This document shows, one piece after another, positions 16,345 to 55,539 of a DNA stretch of 64,000 nucleotides. The notes beneath the pieces were generated by a model, which did not search any database, was not told where the DNA came from, and saw only the letters and a program-made list of their open reading frames with translations. Origin of the DNA: Bacteroidetes bacterium UBA6161. GTDB taxonomy: Bacteria > Bacteroidota > Bacteroidia > NS11-12g > UBA955. Positions within the stretch are counted from its first letter, which is position 1; each line of letters begins with the position of its first letter. The stretch lies in assembly GCA_002422315.1 (NCBI GenBank), contig DIUJ01000068.1, positions 30,882 to 94,881 on the forward strand. Reading direction: 5' to 3'. A program made the translations under genes and the position numbers.

Positions 16345-16347
16345 ATC

Positions 16348-28026: not shown

Positions 28027-28396
28027 AAATTTATTTTTTTAAATCGACTTGAAACTCTTTCAAGCATTGTTTAATATAAACGGACAAAAGGGTCTGATTG
28101 TCCAGCAGAAAAGAAACACAAGCTTGTGTCTATTCACTTAAAAAAAGAATCAAACTGTGTAGTAATACCTTGCCAGCCTATACTTTAATTTTGAGGTTAA
28201 AAACGTCAGTGCATTGGCAAAAGTGTGAAGTTATTTGTGAAAACTATGCAGCATATTTTAGTATCTACTGTCTGCAAGCAGTTTCAAATTTGCATTATCT
28301 GCACTCACGAAAAAGGCGAGCTTGGATACTGATTAGAAGAAACGAACTCTGACCGCATTATTTGAATTCACAAAATCTACTTAACTATCATCTATA

Positions 28397-28740
28397 TTCG
28401 TTTTCATAGTCCTTTATCGGACAGCGAATAATGTGGTAAATAGTTATATTATTAAAATGAGAACTTAAAAGGACAAAACAACAAATTCTGCGGCAAGCAT
28501 AATTGAATCTGCCATAATAGTAATGAACTCTACTGACTTGGTCGGTTGCCGAGCAGCTATTCTGTCCTACTCCATGGGACTTGAATAGCTAATTCGATAT
28601 TCCATAGAGGCAATTTTTATAAGCTTATTTGCAATACAAATTACAGTTAATAAACAGTAGATTACCAAACATATTGAACGAATAAAACAAATTTCAGGAA
28701 ATTCCCTGAGATAAACTCTCAGGAAATTTCCTGAAATTAA
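28397..28740. repeat. direct repeat copy 2 (~345 bp) with the same hairpin
   Basis: Aligns base-for-base with 22993-23340. Weaker similarity continues to a shared 'actATGact' start context at 28801 / 23399. Confidence 0.85.
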
Positions 28741-30649: not shown

Positions 30650-31317
30650 AACGTAATAGAAATTCCAAAATAAGAGTATGGATTGTTGATGACCACTTGC
30701 TATTTACAGAAAGTTTAAAGTCTGTAATAGAATCGAATTGCGAATATATTAAAGTTGAACAAAAAGCTTCTAATGGAAAAGAGTTATTAGAATTACTAGA
30801 AAGAAAAAAACATCCTAATTGCATTTTGTTAGATATTCAAATGCCTATTATGGGAGGATTGAAATTTTTAGAGTATTATAAACACAATTACCCAAATCTT
30901 AATATCCTTATTTTATCGATGCATTGCGATAAACTTAGTATTAGTAGGGCATTAATTTACAAAGCAAAGGGGTTTGTTTCAAAGAATATTTCACAATCGG
31001 AATTGATAGAAGCAATTAAAACAGTAGCACTTGGAGAAAAGTATATTCAGAATGATTATAAAGATTTATTCAACGAAATCCTAACAGAAAGAGAAGAAAT
31101 AAATGGAAAAGTACTAAAGTTTACTGCAAAAGAAAGTGAATTTATTCGACTTTGTCTAGGGGACTGTTCTTATACAGAAATAGCCGACATTATGAATGTT
31201 ACTTACAAAACTATTGATACACATAGGTATAATATTTTCAAAAAGCTAGGAGTAAAAAGTCGGAATGCTATGTTAATTCATTTGAGAGAAAGAGGTTGGC
31301 TTGAAGGTAATGAATAA
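30646..31317 (+). CDS. response regulator, NarL/FixJ family (REC + LuxR-type HTH)
   Basis: REC 'VWIVDDHLLF...LLDIQMP'. C-terminal LuxR HTH 'SYTEIADIMNVTYKTIDTHRYNIFKKLGV'. Overlaps the kinase stop (ATGA). Confidence 0.85.
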   Translation: MKRNRNSKIRVWIVDDHLLFTESLKSVIESNCEYIKVEQKASNGKELLELLERKKHPNCILLDIQMPIMGGLKFLEYYKHNYPNLNILILSMHCDKLSISRALIYKAKGFVSKNISQSELIEAIKTVALGEKYIQNDYKDLFNEILTEREEINGKVLKFTAKESEFIRLCLGDCSYTEIADIMNVTYKTIDTHRYNIFKKLGVKSRNAMLIHLRERGWLEGNE

Positions 31318-33086: not shown

Positions 33087-34592
33087 TCACTCCATTTTCA
33101 AACTCCCACCGCCATTGAATCTCCCACTAGCTGTGGCCATTTTATTTTCTACGGTAATGATTACATCTACTTCGTGAGCCAGTTCATTTCCTCCACGGAA
33201 TTTACCGTCTTTGGTGGAGTGAAACACAAATACAAAACCGATGCGAGGGTATTTGTTTTTAAGTTTCACCATATCAGACAACTCCATACCGGCCCTGCTT
33301 ACACTGTCTATAAACACAAAATCATAGGCACTTAAATTGCTGGGTAATTTTTCCGCAAAATAAAGCTCTGGGTGGGTAGCATTTACCCTTTGTATTTTAT
33401 CTTTAAGCGTATAGCCATACCCCTCCTCAATAGCAGCGTATAAAACAGGTCCGTGCTTGCTTGCCAGTTCGTTTGCAAACTCCAACATGAGGGTGCTTTT
33501 GCCGCTTTTGGGTTGGCCAAATACCATGGCAGTAAACCCTACACTTGGATCGCCAATAAGTTCTCGGAACTTGCCTTTTAAGCCTATGGTTTCAAAATCC
33601 ATACGCATAAGTTCTTGGCTGCTCATCGTATCCTTACTTTTTTGGGGTCCTGGGCTTTCTTTTTTTTTTGAAGAACTACTGTAGGTGTGTGCACCCAACA
33701 GACCTTTGATTCCGTTTAATTCTCCTTGGCTAATAGCCGGAGTCGCTTTTTTCTCTCTAAGATAAACAGCCAAAGACTTAAAGGCAGCATTTAAACGGTC
33801 GGAATACGGGTCTGATTTGCTTATTTTACCAGACTTTACCATGCGTTCCATTGCATTTTTTAAGCGCAGGGCTTTGTCTTCCACACCCGGTTTGCCATGT
33901 ATAGAAAGGTAACGTTTAAGCAAAGCAATAGACTCGCGAATTCTTTCGGAAGAAGCTATTTCCTGGTAATGTTTTAAGTTCTTAGAATCAATCTTAAACT
34001 CAGCTGTATCTTCCATTTTATCCAGGGCACTAATAAGTTGATTTTGGATTTGTAAAATTTCTTTAGCGTAAGGAGATGTTTTTCGGATACGCTTTTCTAG
34101 CATGGCTTTCTGAAGAGAAGACAACAAACTTAGTACACTTTTTTTCGTTCTTACCTTTCCGTCCATAGCAGCATATCGTTTGATAAAAGTAATTTCAATT
34201 GGTATCATTTCAACCCTTTTAGAAGTATCTTCTGCCTTTTCTTTTTTGGGTTTAGCCACTCTTTTGGAAGCTACGTTTTTTTTTACAGCAGGCTTTGGAT
34301 CGCTTGTGCTTTTCGCCTTACTTACTTTTGCTTTGCTTGGAGCTTTGCGAGGCGTTTTGGCATTTGTATTGGGTTGGCTATCCGTCTTTGGTGGATTAGA
34401 CTTTAAGTAGGCATTTAGTTTTTCAATGTAGTTGTCAACAACTCTTTGAATGGTGTCGTTGCTATTATATGCTTGCTTGTTGTTGCTTAGGGCTTTCCTG
34501 GCCAAATCGTCTCCTTTTTTAAGCGCTTCTGGCAAAGAGGAGAAAGATATATTTTGTGTTTTTTCGGTATAGTTGTTTATGGTAATCATCAT
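33087..34592 (-). CDS. P-loop ATPase (RecA/DnaB-fold C-terminal domain) with Lys-rich disordered N-terminal half
   Basis: Walker A 'GQPKSGKSTLMLEF' and Walker B 'DFVFIDSVS'. N-terminal '...KAPSKAKVSKAKSTSDPKPAVKK...'. Confidence 0.5.
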   Translation of the reverse strand: MMITINNYTEKTQNISFSSLPEALKKGDDLARKALSNNKQAYNSNDTIQRVVDNYIEKLNAYLKSNPPKTDSQPNTNAKTPRKAPSKAKVSKAKSTSDPKPAVKKNVASKRVAKPKKEKAEDTSKRVEMIPIEITFIKRYAAMDGKVRTKKSVLSLLSSLQKAMLEKRIRKTSPYAKEILQIQNQLISALDKMEDTAEFKIDSKNLKHYQEIASSERIRESIALLKRYLSIHGKPGVEDKALRLKNAMERMVKSGKISKSDPYSDRLNAAFKSLAVYLREKKATPAISQGELNGIKGLLGAHTYSSSSKKKESPGPQKSKDTMSSQELMRMDFETIGLKGKFRELIGDPSVGFTAMVFGQPKSGKSTLMLEFANELASKHGPVLYAAIEEGYGYTLKDKIQRVNATHPELYFAEKLPSNLSAYDFVFIDSVSRAGMELSDMVKLKNKYPRIGFVFVFHSTKDGKFRGGNELAHEVDVIITVENKMATASGRFNGGGSLKME

Positions 34593-34601
34593 TGTAAAAA
34601 A

Positions 34602-37600
34602 TTAAAAGTCTAATAATTCTAGTTCTAGTTCTAAAGCTTCTGCTTCAAGAGTAAGTAAATCAAAGTCTGCCTCCTGCTCCTCGGATTCAAAATCTTCGGT
34701 ATCATCCACAGGGTCGCTTGGGGGGAGCTCCACTTTAAAGTCCAACAAATAGTTAAGTTTGGCAAATTCCTCTGCGCGTTGTTCCGCGCTTCTACCTTCC
34801 ACCTGAAGGGCTGATTTCTTTTTTTGGATTTCCTCACGTAGTTCTTCCCAGCGAGGAGAATTGTTGTCACCTTGGTAGCGTTCCCCTTGTTTTTTTAATG
34901 CCTCTAGTTCTTGGGTATAACTAGCAACAACTTGATCTAAATCAGAATCAATGGAAAAACCCTTGCTTTTGAGAACTGTTTTTTCTGTTTTTCTTACTTT
35001 AGAAACATATTCTTTGAGGTATTCTAAAATGTAGCGATTGGAGAAATACACCCCAAGAACCACATAGCTAGCATCTATCTTTCTGCCTAAAGCAATCAAA
35101 TCTTTATCCGATATTTCACTTGCCGCAAGAAGCGATTCGATTTCATTGTGAAGTTCTACTGCTTTTTTGTGGTTCTTTACCCTTTGCAGCTCTTCGGAAT
35201 CGGGTTCAATCATCCAATTGCTGTTTTTAAGCGATGCTAAAAAAGCACGTATGGCATCTATGGCTCTTTCTCTATAATTCTTATAGTAGCCTATATCGCG
35301 CTTAATTTCTTCAATAAGCCCAATAGCATAGCGAATGCGTTTGTATTGGCGGTTAAGTTCTTCTTTTTCCTGGTCAAAGAACATTCGTACCAACCTGTCA
35401 ATATCAGTAATTAATGCAAGTTTAATTTCTTGAGGGTCCAAGCTTTCTAAATCCAATACATTGCCCCTGTCGCCCCTAAACCAAATATCATTTATTCGAG
35501 AGGTTTTTTCTTCCAACTTTTGAAAGACAAACACATCCATACTATCTTGAATAAGTGGCATCACAACCCTCACATATTCAAATTGATTGCCTTGTCTCCA
35601 AATACGGCCTTCCAATTGACGAATATCCGTTGGGTTCCATTCTGGATAGCAGTTATAAATTACCGTTCCTCGTCTTTGAAGGTCTATGCCTTCGCGAATG
35701 GTAGCAGTTCCAATAATTACTTTTACCACTCCATCCAGGAAGGCTTCTTTTACGGTTTCTTTCCGGGTATCATTTATTTCAGAAGAAATAATTTCTACCT
35801 CATCCACCTTCGTTTTGGCGAAAAACACCCCTCGTTTAAAGCCTAGTTCCTCTTCTAAATATTGTTTAATTAAACTAAAAAACTGTTTGCCACGGTTCAT
35901 ATATATTACCTGCCCAGAAACATCTTCTCCTTGCTTTTGATGGTACTTTTTCACTGATTTTATACACTCCATTACATAGGCTATTTTAGGACTGTTTTCT
36001 ACAAACTCTTTATAGTTTTCAGGAGTGCCATTAAGTAAATAAGGAGACAGTGCATTGTCTAAACTATACGCTAATGCTCTAAATAAGTTCCCCATATCTA
36101 ATTTACCTTCAGTGGATTTTTTGGCCAGGCTTACAATGCGGTTTTGGTTTTCACGCTGCATGGGGGTCATATTGATATAGGTAAGTGCTTGTTTAGCCGT
36201 TGGCAGTCTTTGTTCTGGCTTGTTTTCAAGCAAATTATAAATCATGGGAAGGTTTATTTTTTTAGGTCTTTTCACACCTGCTTCTTCCCCTGTTTTATAA
36301 AGGATATGGTTATATATAAGTTTTTGAAGTACCCTTCGGTTGGTAAAGCTTTTGATAACCTCTTTTTCTACGATTTCTTCCTTATAATTTGCGGTCCATT
36401 CTACAGTAGGTAAAACAAACAAATCAAAGAAGGTGTCAATATTGTAAATACCGCTACCAATAAGGCTTTCGTATCCTACCAAAGAAAGCATAGAATAAAT
36501 TTCCAGGGGGGAATTAGAAAAGGGTGTAGCTGTGAGCAACATGGTATTACGGCCATACTTACGTTGAACATAGTTAAGCAAGAGAAAAGCTTTTTGTCCT
36601 GTTTCAGAAACAGCAGATTGGATATTGTAACGTTTTCCTTGGTCTTCATCGCTTTTAACAGTAGCAAATACATTTTTACACCTATGGGCCTCGTCTATCA
36701 CCACATAATCAAAGCCAAGTGCATCTACATCTGCTACGGTATTTTTTAAGCCAACACCAATCATTTCCCTAAACTTTTGGTATTTGATTTCTTTATCTCT
36801 TTGAGATTTTTCATTGCTTTGACCAAGAATATTTACCAGTTCAGTAAACAGCTCTTCTGAAACCTGTTTACCAAACCCCAGGCGTTTAAACCCTTCATAA
36901 GTTACCAAGGTGATACTCTTTTCAGGAACTGCCTTGTTGAGGTTTATTTTCTTAACGGTTTCTGTTCCTAAGTTATACCATTCATTGATACTTACATCGG
37001 TATAAGACAACACGCCAGGTACAAACTCTCCAGTTCTTTTGTCGGTATACCCAACGAGTTCACCCACCCATTTTTTATAGGTTGGTTTAGGAACCACAAT
37101 CAAAGGCCTACTACATTTGCCGGAATACATTGCATGGGCTAGGTTTGTTATAGCAGTCATAGTTTTACCCACGCCCACATCAAAGGCATTGATACCGGAA
37201 CCCATAGCTTCCATAAAAGCGATGCCCTCTCTTTGAATATCGGTAATTTGCAATACACCGCTTTTAAACCTTCGAGAGCACTCAAATCCTATAGGTACTT
37301 TGTGGTGTTTTATATCACTTTGGCCATTATACAATCTGTTCCAGGAATAATCCAATCGTTGTTGGTCCTGGAAGGTGAGTACCTCGTGCAAAAACTTAGA
37401 AAACAATTTTTCGCCTTCTTCTCTTGCATTGGCTTTAAGTTCGGCTTTTTCCTCCTTACTCAACCTATCATCGCGAAGGGGCCTATTTGCTATATAATAA
37501 TCTGCAATGTCTATGGCACTACTCTTGTTAAACTCCGTTTCCTGTAGCGTAAAAAGCCATTTCACATAGACCTCTTGTAAGGAAAACTTTCTTTCGCCAT

Positions 37601-38507
37601 CAAATCGAAGGTTGATACTGTCTTTGGAACTTTTACGTGAAATTTTACCATTCACTTTTTTAAACTCTTCTGCATTTTCTACATCCATATACTCCTCACG
37701 AACTAGCGTTATGAAAAAGGTATCTACACTTGCAGCAAAATCAGAAATAGCAGTAACAATGGGTCTTTCTTTTTCATCTGGATTGGTAACAGTCATTAGC
37801 AAAGGTTTTGCCTCTTGAATTTGTTTTGCATGTTGTTGGTACACTTCTGTACCCCAGGTATCTATAATGATACTTTTGTCTGATTCTAGCTGAAGCTCCC
37901 TGTCGTACATGTTGCCATAGGTAAATACAGGCAATGGTAGTAATTCCCCGCCATGATAATACAGTGCGCCTTCTTTCACAAGGCGATTAAGTTCCACCTG
38001 GTTGTTGGTACTCTCGCCAGGGATTAGTTTGCAATCCACAGTGTGCAAAAGAAACAAGCCCGCTCCGGCCCTTACTACATGGAATTTGGAACCTAAGTTT
38101 CCTTCTTGGTCTCTGATCCATTTGCCAATGACCTCGCCAGGATATGCCATTCTTATTTCCTGCATCCTGGTATCGTACAAGATAGTTTCCTTAACTACCT
38201 CCACATTTTTAGTTTTTTCTCCTGCTTTCAGGTAAAAATCCTCCCATCCCTTCATTGGTGTTCCCACACTACGCTTATACCAAACCCAAGCTTGTATTTC
38301 ACTCTTGGTGATGCCTTTATTGTAGCGTTCTACTACCTCTGCAAAAGGCATTACATTGTCAGACTTGGTATTTCCTAATCCAGAAAGTGTCGGCTTTTCG
38401 TCCAAGAGTTTTTTTAAATCCTCTTTTCTCCAGGCTAAACTAGCTGCCAAGTAAGGGTTTATTTTTCCGAGCGCTTGGGCGCTTTTAATTCCATTTAAAT
38501 AACTCAT
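34602..38507 (-). CDS. SNF2/DEAH-family helicase, 1301 aa, with acidic Leu/Glu-repeat C-terminus
   Basis: Motif I 'GVGKT', motif II 'DEAHRCKN', motif III 'LLTATP' and motif VI 'QLEGRIWRQG'. Tail '...EALELELELLDF'. Confidence 0.8.
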   Translation of the reverse strand: MSYLNGIKSAQALGKINPYLAASLAWRKEDLKKLLDEKPTLSGLGNTKSDNVMPFAEVVERYNKGITKSEIQAWVWYKRSVGTPMKGWEDFYLKAGEKTKNVEVVKETILYDTRMQEIRMAYPGEVIGKWIRDQEGNLGSKFHVVRAGAGLFLLHTVDCKLIPGESTNNQVELNRLVKEGALYYHGGELLPLPVFTYGNMYDRELQLESDKSIIIDTWGTEVYQQHAKQIQEAKPLLMTVTNPDEKERPIVTAISDFAASVDTFFITLVREEYMDVENAEEFKKVNGKISRKSSKDSINLRFDGERKFSLQEVYVKWLFTLQETEFNKSSAIDIADYYIANRPLRDDRLSKEEKAELKANAREEGEKLFSKFLHEVLTFQDQQRLDYSWNRLYNGQSDIKHHKVPIGFECSRRFKSGVLQITDIQREGIAFMEAMGSGINAFDVGVGKTMTAITNLAHAMYSGKCSRPLIVVPKPTYKKWVGELVGYTDKRTGEFVPGVLSYTDVSINEWYNLGTETVKKINLNKAVPEKSITLVTYEGFKRLGFGKQVSEELFTELVNILGQSNEKSQRDKEIKYQKFREMIGVGLKNTVADVDALGFDYVVIDEAHRCKNVFATVKSDEDQGKRYNIQSAVSETGQKAFLLLNYVQRKYGRNTMLLTATPFSNSPLEIYSMLSLVGYESLIGSGIYNIDTFFDLFVLPTVEWTANYKEEIVEKEVIKSFTNRRVLQKLIYNHILYKTGEEAGVKRPKKINLPMIYNLLENKPEQRLPTAKQALTYINMTPMQRENQNRIVSLAKKSTEGKLDMGNLFRALAYSLDNALSPYLLNGTPENYKEFVENSPKIAYVMECIKSVKKYHQKQGEDVSGQVIYMNRGKQFFSLIKQYLEEELGFKRGVFFAKTKVDEVEIISSEINDTRKETVKEAFLDGVVKVIIGTATIREGIDLQRRGTVIYNCYPEWNPTDIRQLEGRIWRQGNQFEYVRVVMPLIQDSMDVFVFQKLEEKTSRINDIWFRGDRGNVLDLESLDPQEIKLALITDIDRLVRMFFDQEKEELNRQYKRIRYAIGLIEEIKRDIGYYKNYRERAIDAIRAFLASLKNSNWMIEPDSEELQRVKNHKKAVELHNEIESLLAASEISDKDLIALGRKIDASYVVLGVYFSNRYILEYLKEYVSKVRKTEKTVLKSKGFSIDSDLDQVVASYTQELEALKKQGERYQGDNNSPRWEELREEIQKKKSALQVEGRSAEQRAEEFAKLNYLLDFKVELPPSDPVDDTEDFESEEQEADFDLLTLEAEALELELELLDF

Positions 38508-38953
38508 AATTCCAATAAATTTAATTCTGTTTCTAAAGCTAGTGCCTCTAGTTCATCTAGTCCTATGCTTGTTTTGCTACCCAAAGTAGTATCAATTGCT
38601 TTCTCTACATCTTTTCTATCCCCTTGTATGGTAACAGGAAAATCACGTGAGCTAGTGCCTACTTCTTTGCCGCATACCTTCCAAGGATAGAGTTGGAAAT
38701 ATGTATTAAAGGTCATCCATTCAGTAAAACTTAAAGATGCATTACTCAAGTCTTGTTCTTTTAAAATTCTTTTTTGTATTGCTTCCGCATCTGCATCTAC
38801 AGGAAAAACTCCATTTCTTAATTGAGAGATGTAGGTTTCCAATCTTTTTGCATCGTCCTTTTTAGCATCTTTCAAAAAAGAAGTTAAGCGGATTCGCAGG
38901 TCATGCAGCGCTTCAATTCGCGCGCGTAATTGTTGTGGATTTAAGCTTGCCAT
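38504..38953 (-). CDS. hypothetical protein with acidic Leu/Glu-repeat C-terminus
   Basis: 149 aa. Tail 'LDELEALALETELNLLEL' resembles the helicase tail. Overlaps neighbours (ATGA). Confidence 0.4.
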   Translation of the reverse strand: MASLNPQQLRARIEALHDLRIRLTSFLKDAKKDDAKRLETYISQLRNGVFPVDADAEAIQKRILKEQDLSNASLSFTEWMTFNTYFQLYPWKVCGKEVGTSSRDFPVTIQGDRKDVEKAIDTTLGSKTSIGLDELEALALETELNLLEL

Positions 38954-39699
38954 TCCATTTCAATTTGAGGGATAATTGCTTCCGGTATTCTGTTTTCACG
39001 AATTACCTTTTCCAAAATTCTTTCTTCCATTTTCAAAAACCCTTCTCTGCTATGTATCTGCTTGAATACATAAGGCGAATTGGCTTTAGTTACAGCTTTT
39101 AGTGCTTGTAATACACGCTGTCTCATTTTTATAACCAGGTCATTGTCTTCGTTTTCTAGCCCCGACAATGAAGCTTCTCCTTTGTCGGCAAATGAATAAT
39201 AGCCATCTGTGGTAACGATAATATGGTCTAAAATACTTATATCAAACATTGCAGCGGCATCTTTAAGTTTTTTAGTCATCCTTTTATCCGCATCACTAGG
39301 GTTTAGGTTTCCGCTAGGATGGTTGTGAGAGATAACCATTCCTTTGGCCAAGGTTTTAATGGCAACAGCCGTCACAAGCTGAATGTCAACCTGGGTAGAG
39401 TTGATTGTACCTTTAGAATGCTTGTAGTACCCTATAATTCTATTTCCTTGGTTCATGTACAATACCACAAAGTGTTCCTGGACTTCCAACCCTTCAAAGA
39501 TTACTTCTTTTACAAAGTCATAGGCATCTCTAGAGCTTTTAATTTGATTGAATTGAAGGCGTTCTTCCTTAAAAGTGATGTCAATTTCTCTTACATTAAA
39601 ATCGCGTTCTATCTCACTTAGATTGATTTCTAGGTCGGACATGTCTACGCTGTCCATGATTATTATTCCATTTTGTTGTGGTATTTTATAAGGTTTCAT
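38941..39699 (-). CDS. RadC-like JAB/MPN-domain protein
   Basis: 'HNHPSGNLNPSDADKRMTKKL' is the JAMM-type RadC/DUF2466 signature. N-terminal domain unknown. Confidence 0.65.
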   Translation of the reverse strand: MKPYKIPQQNGIIIMDSVDMSDLEINLSEIERDFNVREIDITFKEERLQFNQIKSSRDAYDFVKEVIFEGLEVQEHFVVLYMNQGNRIIGYYKHSKGTINSTQVDIQLVTAVAIKTLAKGMVISHNHPSGNLNPSDADKRMTKKLKDAAAMFDISILDHIIVTTDGYYSFADKGEASLSGLENEDNDLVIKMRQRVLQALKAVTKANSPYVFKQIHSREGFLKMEERILEKVIRENRIPEAIIPQIEMEWQA

Positions 39700-39700
39700 A

Positions 39701-40456
39701 TTACAGTTTTCTTAAAATAATTATATCCGTAGGCACTTGACTGAATTTAAAAACCGGAGGCAAGCGGTAAGCATCAACTAGCTCTGCAATTTGGCCAATG
39801 GTTTCTTTTTCTCCTTGATAAGTGATTCCACTGCGCATGATATTACTAGAAGTAAGATAAACCAATAAGCCACCTGGTTTGAGCATCTTTACTCCGTAGT
39901 ACATGAAAAAAAACTCCATTTGTTTCATTTGTGGGGTTCGGAAATAGCTTGAATATTGGTTTACATGTTTGCCGTAGGGAGGATTAGAAATTACCAATGA
40001 AAATGGGTAGTCTGAAAGCCAGGTTAAACCCTTTTTGTAGGGTTGGGTAAATCTATCGGGCTCCATAAAAGCGGTTTCGAAATATTGGTTGTACACCTTT
40101 GTTCCAGGGTATAAAATCTGCGCTATTCTAGCAGAGGTAGGGTTAATTTCAAATCCAGTAATTTCTTTCTTATTCGGTGCATCTTTAAACAATCTACCGG
40201 AAGCGCAAGCAGGTTCTAAAACAGGGCCTCCTTTGTAGCCATGGTATTTAGCCAATTCCCACATTTTAGCACAAAGCCAGTCTGGAGTGTAAAACTCATA
40301 TAAAACACCTTGCCCTTGTGCTCCTTTTGAACCATGACCTCCAGCGCCTTCATATTGGGCAATAAAGGTTTTATCCGCCAAAGAATAGGTCTCTTTTCGG
40401 GCATCCTTTTGTTTGATTAAGGCCTCAATCTTATGGTTCAGTTCAAGTTGATTCAA
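39701..40456 (-). CDS. N6-adenine DNA methyltransferase (gamma-class, NPPY)
   Basis: 'LEPACASGRLF' SAM motif followed by 'ISNPPYGKH'. Confidence 0.6.
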   Translation of the reverse strand: MNQLELNHKIEALIKQKDARKETYSLADKTFIAQYEGAGGHGSKGAQGQGVLYEFYTPDWLCAKMWELAKYHGYKGGPVLEPACASGRLFKDAPNKKEITGFEINPTSARIAQILYPGTKVYNQYFETAFMEPDRFTQPYKKGLTWLSDYPFSLVISNPPYGKHVNQYSSYFRTPQMKQMEFFFMYYGVKMLKPGGLLVYLTSSNIMRSGITYQGEKETIGQIAELVDAYRLPPVFKFSQVPTDIIILRKL

Positions 40457-41055
40457 GGTTGAATTTTAAGAAAAGTGGAATAGTGAATTTGTGCATTAGG
40501 ATTTTTAAGACTTACCCTTTGCATGAGTTTCCTTTTTGAGAAAATCCATAGCCAGGGCTTTTCTCTTGGCCCTTTAAAAACCACTTGAACCAAAGTATCT
40601 TTATAAGACAAATCCAGTTTTTGCTTATTTTCATGCAACACTCCATTAACCCTAAAGAAACCATCGTAATAGGAAAATACTTTATGCTGTTGGGTGTCTA
40701 AAACTATAGTATCGTGTAGAACAAGTTCTACTGTTTTGGCAGCTTCAAAAGAAGTGACTCCAAAGTTTTGCACTTTTGAGAGTTTTACCTTTAGGTTGCT
40801 AATTTCATTTTTAATTTCAGGCAAAAGGGTTGTAAGTTCTTGAGCACGTAGTGAAAGTACTGTGTTTTCAACCATTAAAAGTCCGTTTTCTGTTTCTAAT
40901 TGCTTGCTTTCTTGGGAAAGTAGGGAAGTAGTTTTAAGTAACTGTTTGTACTTGCTTTGTTCTTTTTTCCAAGAAAGAAATAATGCAACGGCCACTACTA
41001 AAAGCAGGGCGAAGGCAAACAAATTGGCTAGTTGAGTAGTGATTGATCGTATCAT
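40453..41055 (-). CDS. membrane-anchored coiled-coil protein
   Basis: One N-terminal TM helix followed by a coiled-coil region. Confidence 0.35.
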   Translation of the reverse strand: MIRSITTQLANLFAFALLLVVAVALFLSWKKEQSKYKQLLKTTSLLSQESKQLETENGLLMVENTVLSLRAQELTTLLPEIKNEISNLKVKLSKVQNFGVTSFEAAKTVELVLHDTIVLDTQQHKVFSYYDGFFRVNGVLHENKQKLDLSYKDTLVQVVFKGPREKPWLWIFSKRKLMQRVSLKNPNAQIHYSTFLKIQP

Positions 41056-47816: not shown

Positions 47817-49655
47817 TTATTTAAGGGTTAATTTTTTAATTGCTGTGTAATTTGAACTCTTGGTTTTTCTTTTTGAGCTCGTTGCTTTTCGTTTATAAGT
47901 TCTCTTTTTAGGACCTGCCAATCCATTCATTCCTCTCTTTTTAGGCTTGAACACCAAGTAAGCTCCAAATGCAAGTGCACCTGCTCCTGCAATTGCAATT
48001 CCAGGATTTTTCTTTATAAATGACATGATTCCACCTGATTCGGTGTTTGTAACGGGTGAGGGAAGGCTTGGAATAACTGATACCATATTCCCAGAAGAGG
48101 TGTTTGGAGTGACTGTTACTAATTCAGGATAACTAGCACTTGGTAGTAAAGTTGCCGTTGTAACAGAAGGGCTAAAGCTTGGAGAAGGGGGAGTATAGCT
48201 AGGTGTAGGAGTAGAATAATTGGTGCTTATTCCTTGTTCTGCTGCTTCCGCCTCTGCCACTAAGTTGTTTGTATTTATATCCTCTCCTGGGGCTATTAAA
48301 CCAGTTTCTTGTAAGATCTTTAATGTCGCAATAATTAAAGGTGTAGCAGCTGCAATGGCTGCCGACATAGAAATAGGTTCTCCAAGGTTTTCGTATGTAT
48401 CAGTGTAGCCTAGTCCTCCAGCTCTACCTTTTAAAATGGCATCTTTTAGTGCTTGTCTATCCCCTTGTAGCTTGTCAACATACAGGTTTTCTATCCTGGA
48501 TAATGCTGTCTTTGCTCTTGTCCATTCGTTAGATGAAATGCCTCTTGCTGCGGCTTCGCTTTGTGAAGCATAAGCCCATTTGAGCTTGGTGCCCATTCGC
48601 TTTAAATTTAATCGCATCGCAGCCAAAAAACCAAGTCTAGCTACTACACTGATAGGGTTGTATTGTACAACCGCATCTACCACCGCTTTGCCTGCATCTA
48701 CAATTCCACTGCCTACATTGCTCAAAAAATTTCCTACTTTTTCAAACAAACCGCTCATACCTTGTGGCGAATAGTCTGTGTTTTCACCAAATAGTCCACT
48801 GTTTTGTTTGATTTGGATTTCATTGGCTATCAGTATTGCTATCGCTTCATCGCGTTTGTCTGTATTCCAATAGGTTAGAGCATAGTCTAGCATTTTAATA
48901 AACCCTTCCGGGTCTTCTACGCTTGCTATCATAGAGGGGTTTTGTGCAATGCTGTTTCGGGTTGCTACCAGGTAGTTGTACATGGCTTGTAATTGCTCCT
49001 GTTGCGAAACGCTCATTAAGTCTGCCGGAATATCTGTTCCAAACAGTACTTGGGTTAAAGGTTCGTTGTGGCCACTTAGTACTGCCACATCAATTCCGGA
49101 TAAGTTCATAGTAAAATCTTTTTTTTGGGTAAAGGGTTTTTCATAATCAAAACTGGATAAAACAGCATCAATCAGAATAAGATTAGATTGGTCAGGAACC
49201 ACCACATACACATGTTGGTAATGCTCGCTTCCATATTTTGTGATACGAAAAGAATGGGGAATCTTTAGGTTGGTTAATATAGAAGAACAGAATATAGAAA
49301 AACAGTCGCAGTCAATACCTGATTTGCGGTCAGACCAGGACCTAGCAGGCCTTCTGAGCTCCTCTAGTCCTTGTTTGTCTAAGCGATACTGTATGTGGTG
49401 GTACAAGAAATTCCAAATATTTCGGCAGGTCTCACGCTTGGTATTGCTGCTTAATATGGGGGCGATTTGTTTGGTATCGTCTATGTATTTCCAAACCACA
49501 CGTTTCATTAAGTCCACCGTTTGATGCACTTCTCCGTCTTCAATTATAATACGGTCTTGTGATTCGGGTTTTGGGAAATAACGATCGTATTCCGCACCAC
49601 TTTTTATCGGACGGTAGCCTGTAGTAATGGACCCTATGTGGAATGTGTTACTCAT
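47817..49655 (-). CDS. virion-associated protein with transglutaminase-like Cys-protease core and Lys-rich TM tail
   Basis: Cys 'GIDCDCFSIF', His 'HYQHVYVVV' and Asp 'LILIDAV' in transglutaminase-core order. C-terminal TM + 'KKRTYKRKATSSKRKTKSS'. Confidence 0.4.
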   Translation of the reverse strand: MSNTFHIGSITTGYRPIKSGAEYDRYFPKPESQDRIIIEDGEVHQTVDLMKRVVWKYIDDTKQIAPILSSNTKRETCRNIWNFLYHHIQYRLDKQGLEELRRPARSWSDRKSGIDCDCFSIFCSSILTNLKIPHSFRITKYGSEHYQHVYVVVPDQSNLILIDAVLSSFDYEKPFTQKKDFTMNLSGIDVAVLSGHNEPLTQVLFGTDIPADLMSVSQQEQLQAMYNYLVATRNSIAQNPSMIASVEDPEGFIKMLDYALTYWNTDKRDEAIAILIANEIQIKQNSGLFGENTDYSPQGMSGLFEKVGNFLSNVGSGIVDAGKAVVDAVVQYNPISVVARLGFLAAMRLNLKRMGTKLKWAYASQSEAAARGISSNEWTRAKTALSRIENLYVDKLQGDRQALKDAILKGRAGGLGYTDTYENLGEPISMSAAIAAATPLIIATLKILQETGLIAPGEDINTNNLVAEAEAAEQGISTNYSTPTPSYTPPSPSFSPSVTTATLLPSASYPELVTVTPNTSSGNMVSVIPSLPSPVTNTESGGIMSFIKKNPGIAIAGAGALAFGAYLVFKPKKRGMNGLAGPKKRTYKRKATSSKRKTKSSNYTAIKKLTLK

Positions 49656-50405: not shown

Positions 50406-50646
50406 GTCCCTAACACAAAAAGGACTTAGAAGGAGTTAAGAGGGGATAAGAGGGAATAGGAGGAAATAGTGTTAAATTTCGAGTGTAATTATTTGGTTTG
50501 GTGAAGAAAAAGAGATATTTTTGAGGACTTGGTTATTGTGCTATAAAATAGCAATATATCCATAAAACGCTCTTGTTTTCGGTAAAAATTCCCCAAAACT
50601 ACAAGATGACAAAAATAAAAACTGACTAATAAACTAAAGTTTTAAA

Positions 50647-51732
50647 ATGATAGACTTCAACTTTCTTTTAGTTAATAGATTGATTATTCATACAATTAAT
50701 GCTAAACAAGATGGACAAGATAGTGCTAGTGTAGACGCTTCAAATGAAATTTCTGAAATAGACCATTATGTTTTAGAAATTATCAGAAACCGTCTCATTG
50801 ATGCCGCTGGTCGTAATTCAAAAGCGTTTGAACTTGAAATAGAAAATTCAAATTCGGACTCGTTTTTTGAACTATCAAGCGAAATGTCTGAACTTGACGA
50901 AACTGCATTTATTCAACGTACAACAGAAATTGCTGAACTTTTGGCAGACAGTCAAAGAAGAGTATCAATTCCTGGAGGCTATCTTCTGATTTTGGATTGC
51001 TTAGATAATGAAAGCAACCTTCCTATAATCATTGTTATTAAAGCAGAACCACACGAAGCATTACAATTTTCAATAAATGGTGGACATACTCAAGTGAGTG
51101 TTTTACATAAAGTTTTTCTTTCACCTTCTCAAAAACTTTACAAGATTGGTATCATTTACAAAAAAACTGAAGAAGAAACAGAGAACGTAAATGAACAATT
51201 CGGTTGTTTCTTATATGACGATCAGTTTAGGACAGATACTCATCCTGCCGAATATTTTTATAAAGACTTCTTAGGTTTTACAGTAGGGAATAATGCAAAA
51301 ATTCAATCTCAAAGATTTTATGATAAGACCAAAAGCTTCATTTTGAAAAATGTACAAGACTTAGAAACAAAAACACATTTGGTCTCAGCATTAAAAAATG
51401 AGTTTTCAATTAACCAAAATGACACAGTCGATCCAATTAATTTTGCGAATACTTACATTCCAACAGAAAATGGTTTGAGAGATACCTATATTGGTGACGT
51501 TTGTCATGAACTTCCACTTGCTATTGTTAAAGACGATAGCTTAATAAAAATAAAATTAGCTAAACGAAAAATAGATTTTCCAAGCAATATTAATCTAACA
51601 GGACCAGAAGAAGGCTTTGACAATAGAGTGGAAATTATAAGTGATTTAGAAACTATTCAAAACCTTGAAGCTGACAATCCTAATTATACTATTGTAAAAA
51701 TATCAGGCAAGCCGTATTCTTCAAATGAATAA
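50647..51732 (+). CDS. hypothetical protein, possibly nucleoid-associated NdpA/YejK-like
   Basis: N-terminal 'LLVNRLIIHTI' pattern as in NdpA-family proteins. Overlaps the downstream gene by 8 nt. Confidence 0.3.
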   Translation: MIDFNFLLVNRLIIHTINAKQDGQDSASVDASNEISEIDHYVLEIIRNRLIDAAGRNSKAFELEIENSNSDSFFELSSEMSELDETAFIQRTTEIAELLADSQRRVSIPGGYLLILDCLDNESNLPIIIVIKAEPHEALQFSINGGHTQVSVLHKVFLSPSQKLYKIGIIYKKTEEETENVNEQFGCFLYDDQFRTDTHPAEYFYKDFLGFTVGNNAKIQSQRFYDKTKSFILKNVQDLETKTHLVSALKNEFSINQNDTVDPINFANTYIPTENGLRDTYIGDVCHELPLAIVKDDSLIKIKLAKRKIDFPSNINLTGPEEGFDNRVEIISDLETIQNLEADNPNYTIVKISGKPYSSNE

Positions 51733-52708
51733 CAAGGAACAAGAAATATTAGAGCAGTTCAACTCAATTAAACCACATTTGAAAATTTGGGGCGAAATTG
51801 TAGATACCTATCTTGTAAATAAACTCTTGCAAGATATGATAGAAGAGCACCTAATTAAGATTTATCCCTGCTTTAGGATTAAAGATGATAAGTCTTATCT
51901 ATTTAAAGCCTTATACAGGAAAAAGAACTATCGAAATCCTATAGAAAATATTGAAGACAAAATAGGAACAAGGATAGTAGTTTTGAAATCTGACGATATA
52001 AAAATTGTTCAACAAAAAATTCTAGAAGCAAATTTTTGGGTATCAAAACTCACTAAGAATATAGACCAAGAAATAGAAGACAAGCCAAATATATTTGATT
52101 ACCAATCTTCACACATTATTGTTAAACCATTGGGTAAAGATGAAAATTTCCCAAATGAAGTAATCAACTCATTAACCTGTGAAATCCAAATTAGGACACT
52201 ATTGCAACATGCATTTGCAGAAGTGAGCCATGATAGCACATATAAAGGCCCTTATAAGAATGACAAAGAAATACTTCGCAAATTAGCAAAAGCAATGGCT
52301 CTAATGGAAGCCACTGACGATTATTTTTGTAATATTTTTAAAATGATGTCAGATGAGAAAAGGCATTATGCACTTTATTTAAAGGAGTTGATTAACTTGT
52401 TTAGACAATTTAAAGAAGATTTTGACAATGATGAACTAAACTTATTCATAACTGACAGCATTTTTGACCTATTGGAATGTGAAAATATTTCAATTCAAGA
52501 ATTGGAAGTTTTCACTGCAAAGCACTATTCAGACCTGGTAAAATATATTCAGCCACAAAACGGACTATTATTTCAGCAGCCAACAATCATTTTGATACTG
52601 TATTATTTTTATAATAAGAGGACGTTTTTAAAGGATAATTGGACTCTTGATACAGAAGCTTTAAAAAGAATTTATCAAGTCACTACTACTTCATTTAATT
52701 CATATTAA
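51725..52708 (+). CDS. RelA/SpoT-domain nucleotidyltransferase (small alarmone synthetase-like)
   Basis: 'GTRIVVLKSDDI' (G-x-R motif) and 'SHIIVKP...CEIQIRTLLQHAFAEVSHDSTYK', which is the (p)ppGpp-synthetase 'EIQIRT...WAE..H...YK' signature. Confidence 0.65.
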   Translation: MNNKEQEILEQFNSIKPHLKIWGEIVDTYLVNKLLQDMIEEHLIKIYPCFRIKDDKSYLFKALYRKKNYRNPIENIEDKIGTRIVVLKSDDIKIVQQKILEANFWVSKLTKNIDQEIEDKPNIFDYQSSHIIVKPLGKDENFPNEVINSLTCEIQIRTLLQHAFAEVSHDSTYKGPYKNDKEILRKLAKAMALMEATDDYFCNIFKMMSDEKRHYALYLKELINLFRQFKEDFDNDELNLFITDSIFDLLECENISIQELEVFTAKHYSDLVKYIQPQNGLLFQQPTIILILYYFYNKRTFLKDNWTLDTEALKRIYQVTTTSFNSY

Positions 52709-52927: not shown

Positions 52928-53206
52928 TCACGGCTCCCCAATAAACCTTACCACCAACCTAACCTGTTCTGGAGTGAGGGTACGCAGACCTTTTTTAAAT
53001 CCTGTTTCTAGGAGTTCGCAGTGTAAGGCTTCATTTCGTTCTATCCAGGCTCGAAGGCGAGCAGAAGCACTTTTGCTACTTATGTTGGGCATGTAGAGTT
53101 GAGCGAGCTCTCCAAACCCATAAGTCCTAATTCTGAATTCCCCATCATTCATGCAGCAAAAGTAGAAAATACAAATTCTCAGTGTTAGTGCATAGTTCGG
53201 AAGCAA
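52928..53206 (-). CDS. DUF4248-domain protein
   Basis: 'FRIRTYGFGELAQLYMP...ARLRAWI...TPEQVRLVVRFIGEP' matches the Bacteroidetes DUF4248 pattern. Confidence 0.6.
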   Translation of the reverse strand: MLPNYALTLRICIFYFCCMNDGEFRIRTYGFGELAQLYMPNISSKSASARLRAWIERNEALHCELLETGFKKGLRTLTPEQVRLVVRFIGEP

Positions 53207-53247: not shown

Positions 53248-53293
53248 AGGGCAATGGGCAATCCTATATATATATAGGATTGCCCATTGCCCT
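53248..53293. promoter_or_regulatory. 46-bp perfect palindrome with AT-rich centre plus direct ATTGCCC heptamer iterons
   Basis: 'agggcaatgggcaatcctatata|tatataggattgcccattgccct'. Further 'attgccc' copies at 53317 and 53376. Confidence 0.5.
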
Positions 53294-53381: not shown

Positions 53382-53885
53382 CTACAAAAGGGTCAATTTA
53401 TCCCATTTTTTAACCCAAATAAACTTGCCATTTAATTTAGATTTTTCCAAAATTTCTGCGTTTTTAATTCCATAAGCAATCAAAACAGAAGGAGCTCCTG
53501 CACTGTCACCTTGGGTGCCGTTACTATGGTAAAACCGTATTCTGCCTTTTAAAAACAAAACCGCATCTGCTTTACTCCATACCTGTTCAAAAAACATCTT
53601 GGTTTCTGTTCTAGCAAAGGTAAGAGCAATGCAATTGCCATGGGCTACACACTTATCTAACCATAGGTTTGTTTCATTGCCATAAGGAGGATTGCACCAA
53701 ACCCTGCCAGTCCAGGGTTTGGTTAATCCATTGTCTAAAAGTGTAAAGTGTTTGGTGGCTGTATCCCAGGGACGCTTTACAGGACTACATGGGTCTAAGT
53801 CAAATTTACCCAATGCACGTATTAATTCCGGAGGGGTTAGCCACTCATCTTTACCTGTTTTATTCCTTTCAAACGAAGTATCCAT
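53382..53885 (-). CDS. phage-type DNA N6-adenine methyltransferase (Dam, T4-Dam-like family)
   Basis: 'DEWLTPPELIRALGKFDLDPCS' and 'CNPPYG' are characteristic of the phage Dam family. Confidence 0.7.
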   Translation of the reverse strand: MDTSFERNKTGKDEWLTPPELIRALGKFDLDPCSPVKRPWDTATKHFTLLDNGLTKPWTGRVWCNPPYGNETNLWLDKCVAHGNCIALTFARTETKMFFEQVWSKADAVLFLKGRIRFYHSNGTQGDSAGAPSVLIAYGIKNAEILEKSKLNGKFIWVKKWDKLTLL

Positions 53886-53895: not shown

Positions 53896-55131
53896 TTATT
53901 TGGCCATTTCCATTTTCGTTCTTAAAGACATTCCCATCATTTCCTGGGCTATTTTCTTATCTACAATTCGCGCGTAATGCTGTGTACTTTTAATGTTCGA
54001 GTGTCCAAGCATACGACTAACAGATTCTATGGAAACCCCATTTTGAAGGGTTACAGTTGTTGCGAAAGTATGCCTGGCTACGTGGTAAGTAAGCTTTTTT
54101 TCTATTTGGCAGAGATCCGCAATTTCTTTCAGATAGGCATTTAGTTTCTGATTGCTCAATACAGGCAACACTTTGTCATTTGCCCTTAATTGTGAAATAT
54201 CTGCGTACTTATCAATGATCCGTTTGGCAATATCTAACAGAGGAATTTGGCTTCGCTGTTTGGTTTTTTGTCTTCGGGTTTTAATCCACCACATACCATC
54301 TGGTGTACGTTCTAGCTCTGCTTTGGTAAGTTTTGCTACATCCGCATAAGCGAGCCCTGTATAGCAGGAAAATAGAAACAAGTCACATACATGTTCAAGC
54401 CTTTGGAAATCGAATTTCTTGCTTACCAAACGCTGTAATTCTTCATCGTCTAGGTAAGGCCGGTCTGTTTCCTTTAAGGTGAGTTTAAAGCCATCGAAGG
54501 GGTCGTTTTTTATCCAATTTGAACGTATAGCTCGCATGGTGATTTTTTTGAGGAATTGCAGAAATTTAATAGAGGTATTGTAGGTGCAATCTTTTTCAGC
54601 CATAATATACTGGTGAAACTCACGAATCACATTGTACTTAACGGATGCAATAGGCATATCTTCCATTCGATAGTAGGATTTTAGGAAGGCATGGAAATGA
54701 TTTCGGGTAGTGTTGTGTTTTTGCCACAAGGTGTAGGAGCATTGTTTTCCAATGGTCTTTTTCAGTTCTGTGTTGTGTTCATCCCAAATAGCCAGGATAG
54801 TGCGAGCTTCACCATTGTGAATGCCGAACATGTAGTCTCGAATCATGGCAGCAGTAATGTGGTCTGTGTCGCGTGTAAGTTCTGTAAATGCAGCATAGGC
54901 CTTGGAACGTAAGGTTTCAATGAATAGGGTAATTTCCCTTGTGTATTCATCTTTGTTGTACGGAGTTCCGCGACTTTGGTTCCAATCTTCAGGGTTTACA
55001 CGCCTTCGGATAAAGGTAGCCACTTGGCTTCCATTAATGGTGATACGGAGCATGATAGGAGCTCCTTCATTGTTGGTTTTAGCTCTGTTGAGGTAAAACA
55101 TGAGGTTGAAAGTGTTTTTTCTTGACGACAT
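53896..55131 (-). CDS. tyrosine-type site-specific integrase (Bacteroidetes phage integrase with Arm-binding N-terminus)
   Basis: C-terminal 'HVARHTFATT...MLGHSNIKSTQHYARI' (R-H-R-Y catalytic set). N-terminal 'FYLNRAKTNNEGAPIMLRITING' arm-binding domain. Confidence 0.85.
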   Translation of the reverse strand: MSSRKNTFNLMFYLNRAKTNNEGAPIMLRITINGSQVATFIRRRVNPEDWNQSRGTPYNKDEYTREITLFIETLRSKAYAAFTELTRDTDHITAAMIRDYMFGIHNGEARTILAIWDEHNTELKKTIGKQCSYTLWQKHNTTRNHFHAFLKSYYRMEDMPIASVKYNVIREFHQYIMAEKDCTYNTSIKFLQFLKKITMRAIRSNWIKNDPFDGFKLTLKETDRPYLDDEELQRLVSKKFDFQRLEHVCDLFLFSCYTGLAYADVAKLTKAELERTPDGMWWIKTRRQKTKQRSQIPLLDIAKRIIDKYADISQLRANDKVLPVLSNQKLNAYLKEIADLCQIEKKLTYHVARHTFATTVTLQNGVSIESVSRMLGHSNIKSTQHYARIVDKKIAQEMMGMSLRTKMEMAK

Positions 55132-55454
55132 AAAAATTTAGTTTGTGTCTAGGTGTTTTTTGTCGTTAACCAAAAAGGGTAACGATTATTTACACTTTTG
55201 ACGGGTTGTCGTCCTCACTTCGCGATGCAAAGGTAAAAGTTAACAGTTACCTTTTGCTTTGCATAATGTTGCATATCAAGGCATTAAGTTGGAACCCTAA
55301 AAAATCGTTACCTCCGTTACCCCCAAAAAAAAGGGTAACGATTTGAATAATTTAAAGTGCCAAAACATGCATTTTTCTGCCAACCTTAGAAAACAAAAAA
55401 CCCTGTAAATGCCATGATTTACAGGGTTTTGCCAAGAACGTTCCTCTTGACATG

Positions 55455-55539
55455 CGGAGAGAGAGGGATTCGAACCCCCGGACCTGTAACAGTCAACGGT
55501 TTTCAAGACCGCCGCATTCGACCGCTCTGCCATCTCTCC
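55455..55539 (-). tRNA. tRNA-Ser (anticodon TGA)
   Basis: Reverse complement 'GGAGAGATGGCAGAGCGGTCGAATGCGGCGGTCTTGAAAACCGTTGACTGTTACAGGTCCGGGGGTTCGAATCCCTCTCTCTCC'. 7-bp acceptor stem, anticodon loop CTTGAAA, long variable arm, and T-loop TTCGAAT. Confidence 0.85.

Follow-up and report, generated by a model that had tools for sequence, protein, structure and literature searches.

A nucleoid-associated protein and small alarmone synthetase gene pair on a Bacteroidota mobile element, a putative copy of the Type I PANGU defence system

In a stretch of 64,000 nt of DNA from Bacteroidetes bacterium UBA6161 (GenBank assembly GCA_002422315.1, contig DIUJ01000068.1, positions 30,882 to 94,881; hereafter the window), two overlapping genes encode a 361-aa nucleoid-associated protein (NAP) of the YejK/NdpA family and a 327-aa RelA/SpoT-type small alarmone synthetase (SAS). 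Judged by sequence and predicted structure, this pair is an intact, diverged Bacteroidota copy of Type I PANGU, an already-described kind of system, and it opens no new class. By analogy with characterised homologues, we consider it likely that the pair works as a self-contained, horizontally mobile abortive-infection module of this kind, in which release of the NAP would activate (p)ppGpp synthesis. The window thereby places an intact module made of a putative NAP sensor and an alarmone synthetase in Bacteroidota, on an integrative element that probably targets a tRNA-Ser gene.

The PANGU defence systems were defined in an April 2026 preprint (bioRxiv 10.64898/2026.04.06.716658), in which Type I consists of a YejK-like NAP (Pag1A) and a SAS of the gRel subfamily (Pag1B). 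The systems of Ferrimonas futtsuensis, Pseudomonas aeruginosa, and Escherichia coli lowered the plaquing of T4 or Bas34 by 3–4 logs, with both Pag1A and Pag1B needed for defence and neither of them toxic alone. In Pag1B, an N-terminal SYNTH domain is joined by a helical linker to a C-terminal ‘DNA-mimicking’ (DMK) domain, and the G-loop Tyr129 (in Pag1B-Ff) is essential. Together with Pag1A, Pag1B converts ATP and GTP, GDP or GMP into AMP and (pp)pGpp, without labelling tRNA. The C-terminal domain of Pag1B is bound by two Pag1A subunits with nanomolar affinity, and for the P. aeruginosa proteins it was reported that Pag1B on its own forms an inactive tetramer (subunits of 37.5 kDa), which is dissolved by the dimer of Pag1A (40.6 kDa). 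Binding of Pag1A to long DNA is non-specific, and once T4 degrades the chromosome, the protein leaves the nucleoid; a DNA-binding-dead Pag1A renders the pair toxic. The published residues include R258, R306, and H314 at the interface of Pag1B and K200, R203, and K204 as DNA contacts of Pag1A. Type I systems span more than five phyla, and some operons (Cluster 1) have an added SLATT gene (all bioRxiv 10.64898/2026.04.06.716658). A YejK-domain-containing defence system of E. coli was validated independently in the DefensePredictor study. The gRel group itself is a SAS subgroup of the SYNTH-only RelA/SpoT homologue (RSH) proteins that was described as restricted to gamma-proteobacteria (Atkinson et al. 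2011, PMC3153485); the Bacteroidota host of the window lies outside this original circumscription, and its SAS shares ~33% full-length identity with gammaproteobacterial NAP-linked SAS proteins.

An earlier reading of the window by a model, which used only the letters and a list of the open reading frames (ORFs) and is referred to here as the original prediction, had located the two ORFs and their 8-nt overlap exactly (Table 1). The overlap implies that translation of the two genes is probably coupled, and the same offset (−8) is common to most of the close Bacteroidota relatives, while −4 (ATGA) or −1 is found in most other phyla. The predicted masses are 41.0 kDa for the NAP and 39.0 kDa for the SAS. 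A pattern search of the 240-nt intergenic region returned a candidate Bacteroidota-type promoter (a consensus match only) ~125 nt 5′ of the NAP start codon, while scans of the locus for sigma-70 promoters and terminators gave nothing better than shuffled sequence. The locus matched the candidate defence family PDC-S33 of PADLOC (E 4e-11), and full-length PHROG families exist for both proteins.

The SAS matched the Pfam family RelA_SpoT (PF04607; E 5e-13, 49.7 bits, cut-off 27). The alarmone-synthetase signature and the G-x-R motif that had been named in the original prediction are both present, as EIQIRTLLQHAFAEVSHDSTYK at residues 153–174 and DKIGTR at residues 78–83. Their residues D78, K79, G81, R83, E153, Q155, R157, T158, H169, Y173, and K174 are conserved at ≥ 90% over 75 homologues from many phyla, and the same holds for F124, Y126, S128, and H130 of the G-loop (F124-x-Y126-Q-S-x-H130). 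The claim that the protein is devoid of hydrolase or regulatory domains stood in its first part, as no hydrolase (HD) domain was detected by the Pfam scan, but not in its second, as there is a conserved C-terminal domain that tracks with the NAP partner. In the AlphaFold2 (AF2) model (mean predicted local distance difference test score, pLDDT, 86.8; predicted template modelling score, pTM, 0.60), an alpha/beta synthetase domain is followed by two long helices and a helical domain, and the pTM value suggests that these domains may move relative to each other. Within the linker, the columns R185, A188, M191, A192, L193, E195, T197, and F201 are conserved across phyla. From Bacteroidota to Proteobacteria and Firmicutes, the entire C-terminal domain is conserved, and no match for it was found with Foldseek in the PDB entries to 2026-04-08, among which the Pag1A-Pag1B complex 9UFP is not present.

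The Foldseek matches in the PDB were confined to the catalytic part, with RelQ and RelP as the best ones (E ~3e-8, TM-score ~0.68 on the target), followed at a distance by CapRel (3e-5), FaRel2 (1.7e-4), and the N-terminal domains of long Rel proteins (~4e-4). A profile of the SAS family compared with the PDB sequences ranked them similarly (RelP 4e-12, RelQ 1e-10, CapRel 3e-3), and FaRel2 was not detected by it. By both profile and fold, RelP and RelQ, which make (p)ppGpp, are nearer to the catalytic domain than those enzymes among the toxic SASs (toxSAS) that modify tRNA.

The suggestion that the upstream partner is NdpA-like was borne out by a match to NA37 (PF04245), the Pfam family of the NdpA/YejK 37-kDa nucleoid-associated proteins (E 3.5e-13, 50.1 bits, cut-off 24.6). 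The only significant PDB match of the AF2 model of the NAP (pLDDT 83.1, pTM 0.75) was E. coli YejK (9be2; Foldseek E 4.5e-7, 310 columns). Ten basic columns of the protein are conserved across phyla, namely R11, K20, R49, K132, K163, K166, K242, K295, R307, and K308.

The preprint delimits PANGU operons by a gap of < 40 bp between NAP and effector genes on the same strand, and PagA by a YejK/NdpA domain (IPR007358/PF04245) in a protein of ≥ 300 aa at E < 1e-10. In the window, the two genes lie on the same strand with an 8-nt overlap, the NAP has 361 aa, the NA37 match given above (E 3.5e-13), and a YejK fold, and the SAS combines a SYNTH domain carrying the G-loop tyrosine (Y126, cf. Y129 of Pag1B) with linker helices at residues 181–226 and a C-terminal domain at 227–327, whose presence co-varies with the NAP. 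A fingerprint based on residue numbers (Y129, R258, E272, R279, R306, H314, and E337 of Pag1B, and K6, E47, K52, E278, and D282 of Pag1A) was also applied to 80 loci, where ≤ 3 of the 7 Pag1B residues could be matched at arbitrary offsets, which amounts to noise.

Linkage and spread of the two genes

A scan with one genome per species yielded 377 relatives of the SAS, of which the best 80 loci were examined and 79 could be evaluated (the contig of the remaining one was too short to be judged). These 80 loci belong to at least 8 phyla and include Bacteroidota, Bacillota, Alpha-, Beta-, and Gammaproteobacteria, Verrucomicrobiota, Thermodesulfobacteriota, Spirochaetota, Actinomycetota, and Rhodothermota. 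Immediately 5′ of the SAS gene and on the same strand, all of the evaluable loci had an NA37 ORF, intact in 77 of them and decayed in 2, which agrees with the view expressed in the original prediction that the SAS is tied to its upstream NdpA/YejK-like gene and makes this linkage an obligate one. In IMG/VR, a relative of the SAS was encoded on 73 viral contigs, and 68 of these had the intact pair; on ~20 of them, no more than ~1.3 kb separated the pair from the end of the stretch that was retrieved, which mostly coincided with the end of the viral contig.

Three viral SAS relatives that match in the catalytic domain only (loci L159–L161) had no NAP gene. Another phage-borne enzyme without a NAP gene, a 336-aa SAS of the filamentous (Tubulavirales) Vibrio phage 10N.261.45.F7_PE002A (locus L004, 3974–4984), is likewise related in the catalytic domain alone (33% identity, 61% coverage) and represents a different phage-borne SAS family. 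NAP and SAS co-evolve: over 75 pairs, their pairwise distances were correlated with r = 0.917 (Mantel test, 0 of 999 permutations), and with r = 0.79 when distant pairs alone were considered. Because of the consistent pairing, the catalytic-only controls, and the distance correlation, what is inherited as a unit is the two-gene module, in which the NAP tracks with the C-terminal domain of the SAS. No third gene was conserved across the best 80 loci; the most frequent neighbour was a SLATT/DUF4231 gene, present at five gammaproteobacterial loci and absent from the locus in the window.

Homologue searches returned tight families of full-length proteins (SAS ~325 aa, NAP ~360 aa) from mostly Bacteroidota-type sources, and many of the longest-contig sizes given for the SAS family recur in the list for the NAP family. 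Further afield, tblastn against plasmids recovered full-length SAS relatives (30–33% identity, 91–97% coverage) in Ochrobactrum, Klebsiella, and Clostridium botulinum, each of them with an annotated ‘nucleoid-associated protein’ directly 5′ and an overlap of 4 nt. Among 5,426 complete E. coli genomes, a DNA search with the Klebsiella operon for distant matches located 4 that have a homologous operon of genes annotated as ‘nucleoid-associated protein’ and ‘GTP pyrophosphokinase’. The proteins of the E. coli operon align with those of the window nearly end to end (SAS 33% identity, E 9e-47; NAP 27%, E 2e-35), and the NAPs of the E. coli, Klebsiella, Ochrobactrum, and C. botulinum operons match the window NAP over its full length at 26–30% identity (E 1e-32 to 1e-43). 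NAP-SAS operons with full-length homology to the window proteins occur in Pseudomonas species as well.

Some of these loci were inspected for their surroundings. In the E. coli variants SCU-102 (5830–10090) and BEC1-S17-ESBL-07 (7147–16957), the pair lies in tRNA-Thr islands beside a tyrosine integrase and is preceded by a SLATT/DUF4231 gene, an integrase-proximal position that echoes the one in the window. On the C. botulinum C/D plasmid p2CbBKT12695, which carries phage structural genes, a phage lysis gene (amidase) lies ~0.8 kb 5′ of the pair (2886–4909) and is separated from it by one small ORF, and such a position is typical of the accessory (‘moron’) genes of a plasmid-prophage in Firmicutes. 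The genes that flank the pair most closely in the 80 genomes were mixed (patatin, 2TM/SLATT, PsyrA, SoFic, ShosA, GajB, JetA, type II methylases, Mrr, and phage genes), and as these flanks are often defence or phage genes, the pair behaves as mobile defence cargo.

Exchange of the cassette between carriers is also visible among its closest relatives. At the DNA level, the window resembles its five closest relatives at positions 50644–52680 alone, i.e. in the two genes. One of them (L005) has the same layout of NAP, SAS, DUF4248, integrase, and tRNA-Ser genes with a different cargo, and its identity to the window drops from 85% (NAP) and 75% (SAS) to 48% (integrase) and 47% (DUF4248), while the tRNA that flanks its integrase gene is 98.8% identical to the window tRNA-Ser. 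In the closest relative (L007), the pair adjoins a TIR-like effector, and neither a tRNA nor a recognisable integrase gene was found beside it.

In sum, the analysis adds several family-wide points to the published description: the two genes form an obligate unit in which linkage to the NAP follows the C-terminal domain of the SAS, the cassette is exchanged between unrelated carriers, and it is frequent on viral contigs, often near the contig end. These points could be used in annotation, where such genes are now labelled ‘GTP pyrophosphokinase’ and ‘nucleoid-associated protein’.

Proposed mechanism and alternative explanations

The mechanism proposed here is transferred from the Ferrimonas, Pseudomonas, and E. 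coli homologues, which are ~30% identical to the window proteins; release from DNA, the 2:1 complex, the switch from tetramer to trimer, the product, and the defence phenotype are all inferred from them. In an uninfected cell, a dimer of the NAP would be clamped non-specifically on chromosomal DNA, and the SAS would persist as an inactive homo-oligomer. Degradation of the host chromosome by a phage would release the NAP, two subunits of which would then dock on the C-terminal domain of a single SAS and take the inactive oligomer apart. The freed catalytic domain would transfer pyrophosphate from ATP to GTP, GDP or GMP, flooding the cell with (p)ppGpp and depleting its nucleoside triphosphates, so that transcription and translation would halt and the infection would abort. 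Carried by an integrative or prophage-like element, the module may protect the host, and hence the element, from superinfecting phages. The original prediction had proposed an anti-phage module on a mobile element, which is most likely correct, and had seen in the upstream partner a new kind of antitoxin or sensor. Of this latter proposal, the sensor may be kept, as it has been demonstrated for PANGU homologues, while the antitoxin does not fit with a NAP that activates, and the combination of a NAP with gRel has no longer been new since its publication in April 2026.

Several observations weigh against the transfer of this mechanism. It is carried over ~30% identity from Proteobacteria to Bacteroidota, the source for it is a preprint, and the nucleotide product, the oligomeric state, and the trigger are not predictable from the present data. 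The C-terminal domain of the SAS is only mildly acidic (net charge −6, isoelectric point (pI) 4.6; family median −3, with 83% of the members negative) and has one conserved acidic column, so that DNA mimicry is not evident from its composition. The NAP, on the other side of the proposed interface, is unusually acidic in this sub-clade (net charge −24, pI 4.7 in the window), which could alter DNA binding. Relatives at ≥ 50% identity range from −15 to −24, and the median is −15 for 115 close NAP homologues and −3 for NAPs outside Bacteroidota; in the window protein, the excess is concentrated in residues 61–90, ‘ELEIENSNSDSFFELSSEMSELDETAFIQR’.

It is conceivable, though we regard it as unlikely, that the Bacteroidota sub-clade runs a modified NAP-sensor logic, as hinted at by the acidic NAP (−15 to −24) and the weakly acidic C-terminal domain of the SAS. 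If so, the acidity could mean a lower or differently gated affinity for DNA, e.g. through an intramolecular DNA-mimic patch that sets the threshold for release; other options would be a trigger besides bulk degradation of the chromosome or a different nucleotide product. Copies on prophages or integrative elements might then be tuned to fire on superinfection and not on the induction of the element itself. The diverse representatives collected here offer material for asking whether the nucleoid-release mechanism holds beyond Proteobacteria.

A second alternative retains the NAP as sensor and changes the chemistry, with the SAS either pyrophosphorylating the 3′-CCA end of tRNAs (as CapRel, FaRel2, and PhRel do) or synthesising (pp)pApp and depleting ATP (as FaRel and Tas1 do). 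The window SAS is only ~30% identical to the homologue that makes pppGpp, the acceptor specificity of SAS enzymes is not reliably predictable from sequence, and CapRel and FaRel2 are detectable structural relatives. We nevertheless rate this chemistry, which had been put forward in the original prediction, as improbable: in both profile and fold, RelP/RelQ rank much nearer to the catalytic domain than CapRel or FaRel2 do (4e-12 and 1e-10 vs. 3e-3 for CapRel), the net-negative N-terminal half of the SAS (−1; family median −4) does not suggest a basic tRNA-binding surface, and the homologue produced pppGpp from ATP and guanine nucleotides alone, without labelling tRNA.

The toxin-antitoxin idea of the original prediction fared somewhat worse. 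In a classical type II system, the SAS would be a toxSAS of constitutive toxicity that the NAP, as a labile antitoxin, keeps under control, and shut-off by a phage or decay of the antitoxin would release the toxin. The tight coupling of the genes, with the partner upstream in the usual antitoxin-toxin order, would fit such a system, several SAS subfamilies are toxins of toxin-antitoxin modules (PMC7229694), and the module is located on mobile elements. In the Ferrimonas homologue, however, neither gene is toxic alone and both are needed, the NAP switches the enzyme on in vitro instead of neutralising it, and a DNA-binding-dead NAP makes the homologous pair toxic. Moreover, no known toxSAS antitoxin resembles a 361-aa protein with a YejK fold, and full-length SAS copies that lack the NAP were not seen among the loci. 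Altogether, we think there is little chance that the pair is a type II system.

Least probable is a role outside defence, in which the element would use NAP and SAS to act on the nucleoid and the stringent response of the host for its own maintenance or for the decision between lysogeny and lysis: the pair does have the integrase and the regulatory region of an integrative element as its neighbours, (p)ppGpp acts as a global regulator, and the phage challenges were done with systems from other clades, but homologous operons cut the plaquing of T4 and Bas34 by 3–4 logs, the same cassette recurs in unrelated settings (chromosomal islands, plasmids, and prophage ends, beside TIR, patatin, Gabija, Wadjet, Shosta, and PsyrTA genes), a spread typical of defence cargo and not of element-specific regulators, and between two related elements the pair is conserved at 75–85% while the adjacent integration module is at 47–48%. 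An abortive-infection module of the Type I PANGU kind accordingly remains the reading that we prefer.

The carrier element and its surroundings

The pair is situated at the integrase end of a putative mobile element that spans roughly 33–55.4 kb of the window, and the tRNA-Ser(TGA) gene at this end (Table 1) is its probable integration target.

Table 1 Position of the gene pair, its parts, and the neighbouring features in the window
Feature	Position	Strand	Description and basis
Candidate Bacteroidota-type promoter	50492-50523	+	TTTG at 50492 and 50497; TAnnTTTG (TATTTTTG) at 50516-50523
NAP gene (pag1A-like)	50647-51732	+	361-aa YejK/NdpA (NA37) protein, proposed DNA-bound sensor and activator
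SAS gene (pag1B-like)	51725-52708	+	327-aa RelA/SpoT-type small alarmone synthetase
Overlap of NAP and SAS genes	51725-51732	+	8 nt, ATGAATAA, read from the sequence
SAS residues 1-178	51725-52258	+	SYNTH catalytic domain with G-loop Tyr126; Pfam, Foldseek, family profile
SAS residues 179-226	52259-52402	+	Long alpha-helical linker; AF2 helices 181-208 and 211-226
SAS residues 227-327 and stop codon	52403-52708	+	All-helical C-terminal domain, proposed NAP-docking (‘DMK’) module; AF2 pLDDT > 90
DUF4248 gene (carrier context)	52928-53206	-	Pfam DUF4248, E 5.9e-25
Dam-like N6-adenine DNA methyltransferase gene (context)	53382-53885	-	Pfam Dam, E 4.9e-14; phrog_111, E 7e-43
Tyrosine integrase gene, Bacteroidota-type (context)	53896-55131	-	Pfam Arm-DNA-bind_5, SAM_5, Phage_integrase
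tRNA-Ser(TGA) (context)	55454-55539	-	ARAGORN

Besides the integration module, the element carries genes for a tail-fibre-like protein (PHROG match), an endolysin-type glucosaminidase, RadC, two methylases, a 1301-aa SNF2 helicase, and an AAA ATPase. PHROG and Pfam scans of ~30 ORFs of the window recognised no gene for a capsid, portal or terminase protein, and no exact repeat of ≥ 14 nt that could represent an att site was found between the region of the tRNA-Ser gene and the rest of the window. The carrier may plausibly be a prophage. The slot between a prophage body and the integrase, to which the pair had been assigned in the original prediction, is therefore confirmed on its integrase side, where the pair adjoins the tyrosine integrase and tRNA-Ser genes, while the prophage body has partial support, with neither capsid, portal or terminase genes nor an att repeat.

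The left end of the element may be approached through the two-component system genes at 29.2–31.3 kb, which include a histidine kinase (HisKA_3/HATPase_c) and a LuxR-type response regulator (29858–31317) and are probably host genes; their position suggests that the mobile element begins between ~31.3 and 33.1 kb. The region that follows (33087–41055) encodes an AAA_24 ATPase, the 1301-aa SNF2/helicase protein with PHROG matches to DarB-like antirestriction and methyltransferase families, RadC, an N6-adenine methylase, and DUF6549. Together with the Dam-like methylase, these genes resemble the sets for anti-restriction or establishment that transferable elements typically have. Next to them, a compact run of overlapping minus-strand ORFs (41.5–50.1 kb) is headed by a 612-aa protein (47817–49655) that has a weak N-terminal transglutaminase-like match, a Ser/Pro/Thr-rich region, a C-terminal hydrophobic segment, and a Lys-rich tail; it had no match in PHROG, and the ORFs of this run may be novel virion or envelope genes.

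Between the genes of the Dam-like methylase and DUF4248, both on the minus strand, lies a perfect 44-nt palindrome (53249–53292; GGGCAATGGGCAATCCTATATA and TATATAGGATTGCCCATTGCCC), which could be a terminator, an attenuator, or a protein-binding site of the integration module. A general search for repeats in the window gave chance-like short families apart from one direct repeat of ~345 nt, the copies of which (22989–23333 and 28393–28735) are 5.4 kb apart and mostly 96–98% identical, with a central stretch of 43 nt at 86%. This repeat brackets two large minus-strand ORFs (580 and 835 aa), both without a PHROG match, and ORFs of 806 and 892 aa, likewise unassigned, adjoin them.

Comparison with known systems

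The closest solved relatives of the catalytic domain of the SAS are RelP and RelQ (SAS2 and SAS1; PDB 6ewz, 6fgj, 5dec, and 5ded), housekeeping enzymes of Firmicutes with the same catalytic motifs and probably the same chemistry, i.e. ATP and GTP or GDP to (p)ppGpp. They are single-domain proteins of ~210–230 aa, encoded by core chromosomal genes and devoid of a NAP partner, whereas the window SAS has an additional linker and C-terminal domain of ~150 aa and is carried by a mobile element. Assignment of the window SAS to the housekeeping RelP/RelQ enzymes was ruled out by its length of 327 aa, the extra domains, and a score of 28.8 bits against the NCBIfam RelQ/YjbM equivalog (GTPPhKinYjbM), far under the cut-off of 320.

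The toxSAS enzymes (CapRel(SJ46), FaRel2, FaRel, PhRel/PhRel2, and Tas1) resemble the window SAS in that they are RelA/SpoT-family synthetases that stand alone, are carried by mobile elements, and serve as effectors that arrest growth, and CapRel additionally has a C-terminal regulatory domain and a function in abortive infection. They differ in being inhibited by a separate or fused antitoxin and in acting on the CCA ends of tRNAs or making (pp)pApp, and CapRel senses a phage capsid protein directly, while in the window the partner would be an activating NAP and the likely product (p)ppGpp. The ranking of RelP/RelQ first in both profile and Foldseek searches speaks against membership of the window SAS in toxSAS. 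As for the partner, E. coli YejK/NdpA shares the NA37 family with the window NAP and is its only significant structural match; the two proteins are 15% identical, and YejK is a stand-alone product of a housekeeping core gene, in contrast to the window NAP, which is bound in an operon to an effector, mobile, and strongly acidic.

The remaining comparison is with Type I PANGU itself. The window pair departs from the described systems in its host, as Bacteroidota were called ‘sporadic’ for the system, and in its position at the integrase end of a phage-like element at tRNA-Ser, carriage by prophages not being discussed in the preprint (bioRxiv 10.64898/2026.04.06.716658). It is ~27–33% identical to the proteobacterial members and represents the minimal two-gene form without SLATT, with an overlap of 8 nt instead of 4 nt, a very acidic NAP (−24), and a mildly acidic C-terminal domain of the SAS. 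What it shares with Type I PANGU is the overall plan: a YejK/NA37 gene directly 5′ of a SAS gene of ~325–330 aa, with predicted masses of 41.0 and 39.0 kDa close to those of P. aeruginosa Pag1A and Pag1B (40.6 and 37.5 kDa), and a SAS composed of a SYNTH domain with the G-loop tyrosine, a helical linker, and a C-terminal domain. Both proteins are homologous over their full length to those encoded by NAP-Rel operons in E. coli, Klebsiella, and Pseudomonas species, and the family as a whole has the patchy spread over many phyla, the linkage to mobile elements and defence islands, the co-evolution of the two partners, and, in a gammaproteobacterial subset, the SLATT/DUF4231 gene that are seen in Type I PANGU.

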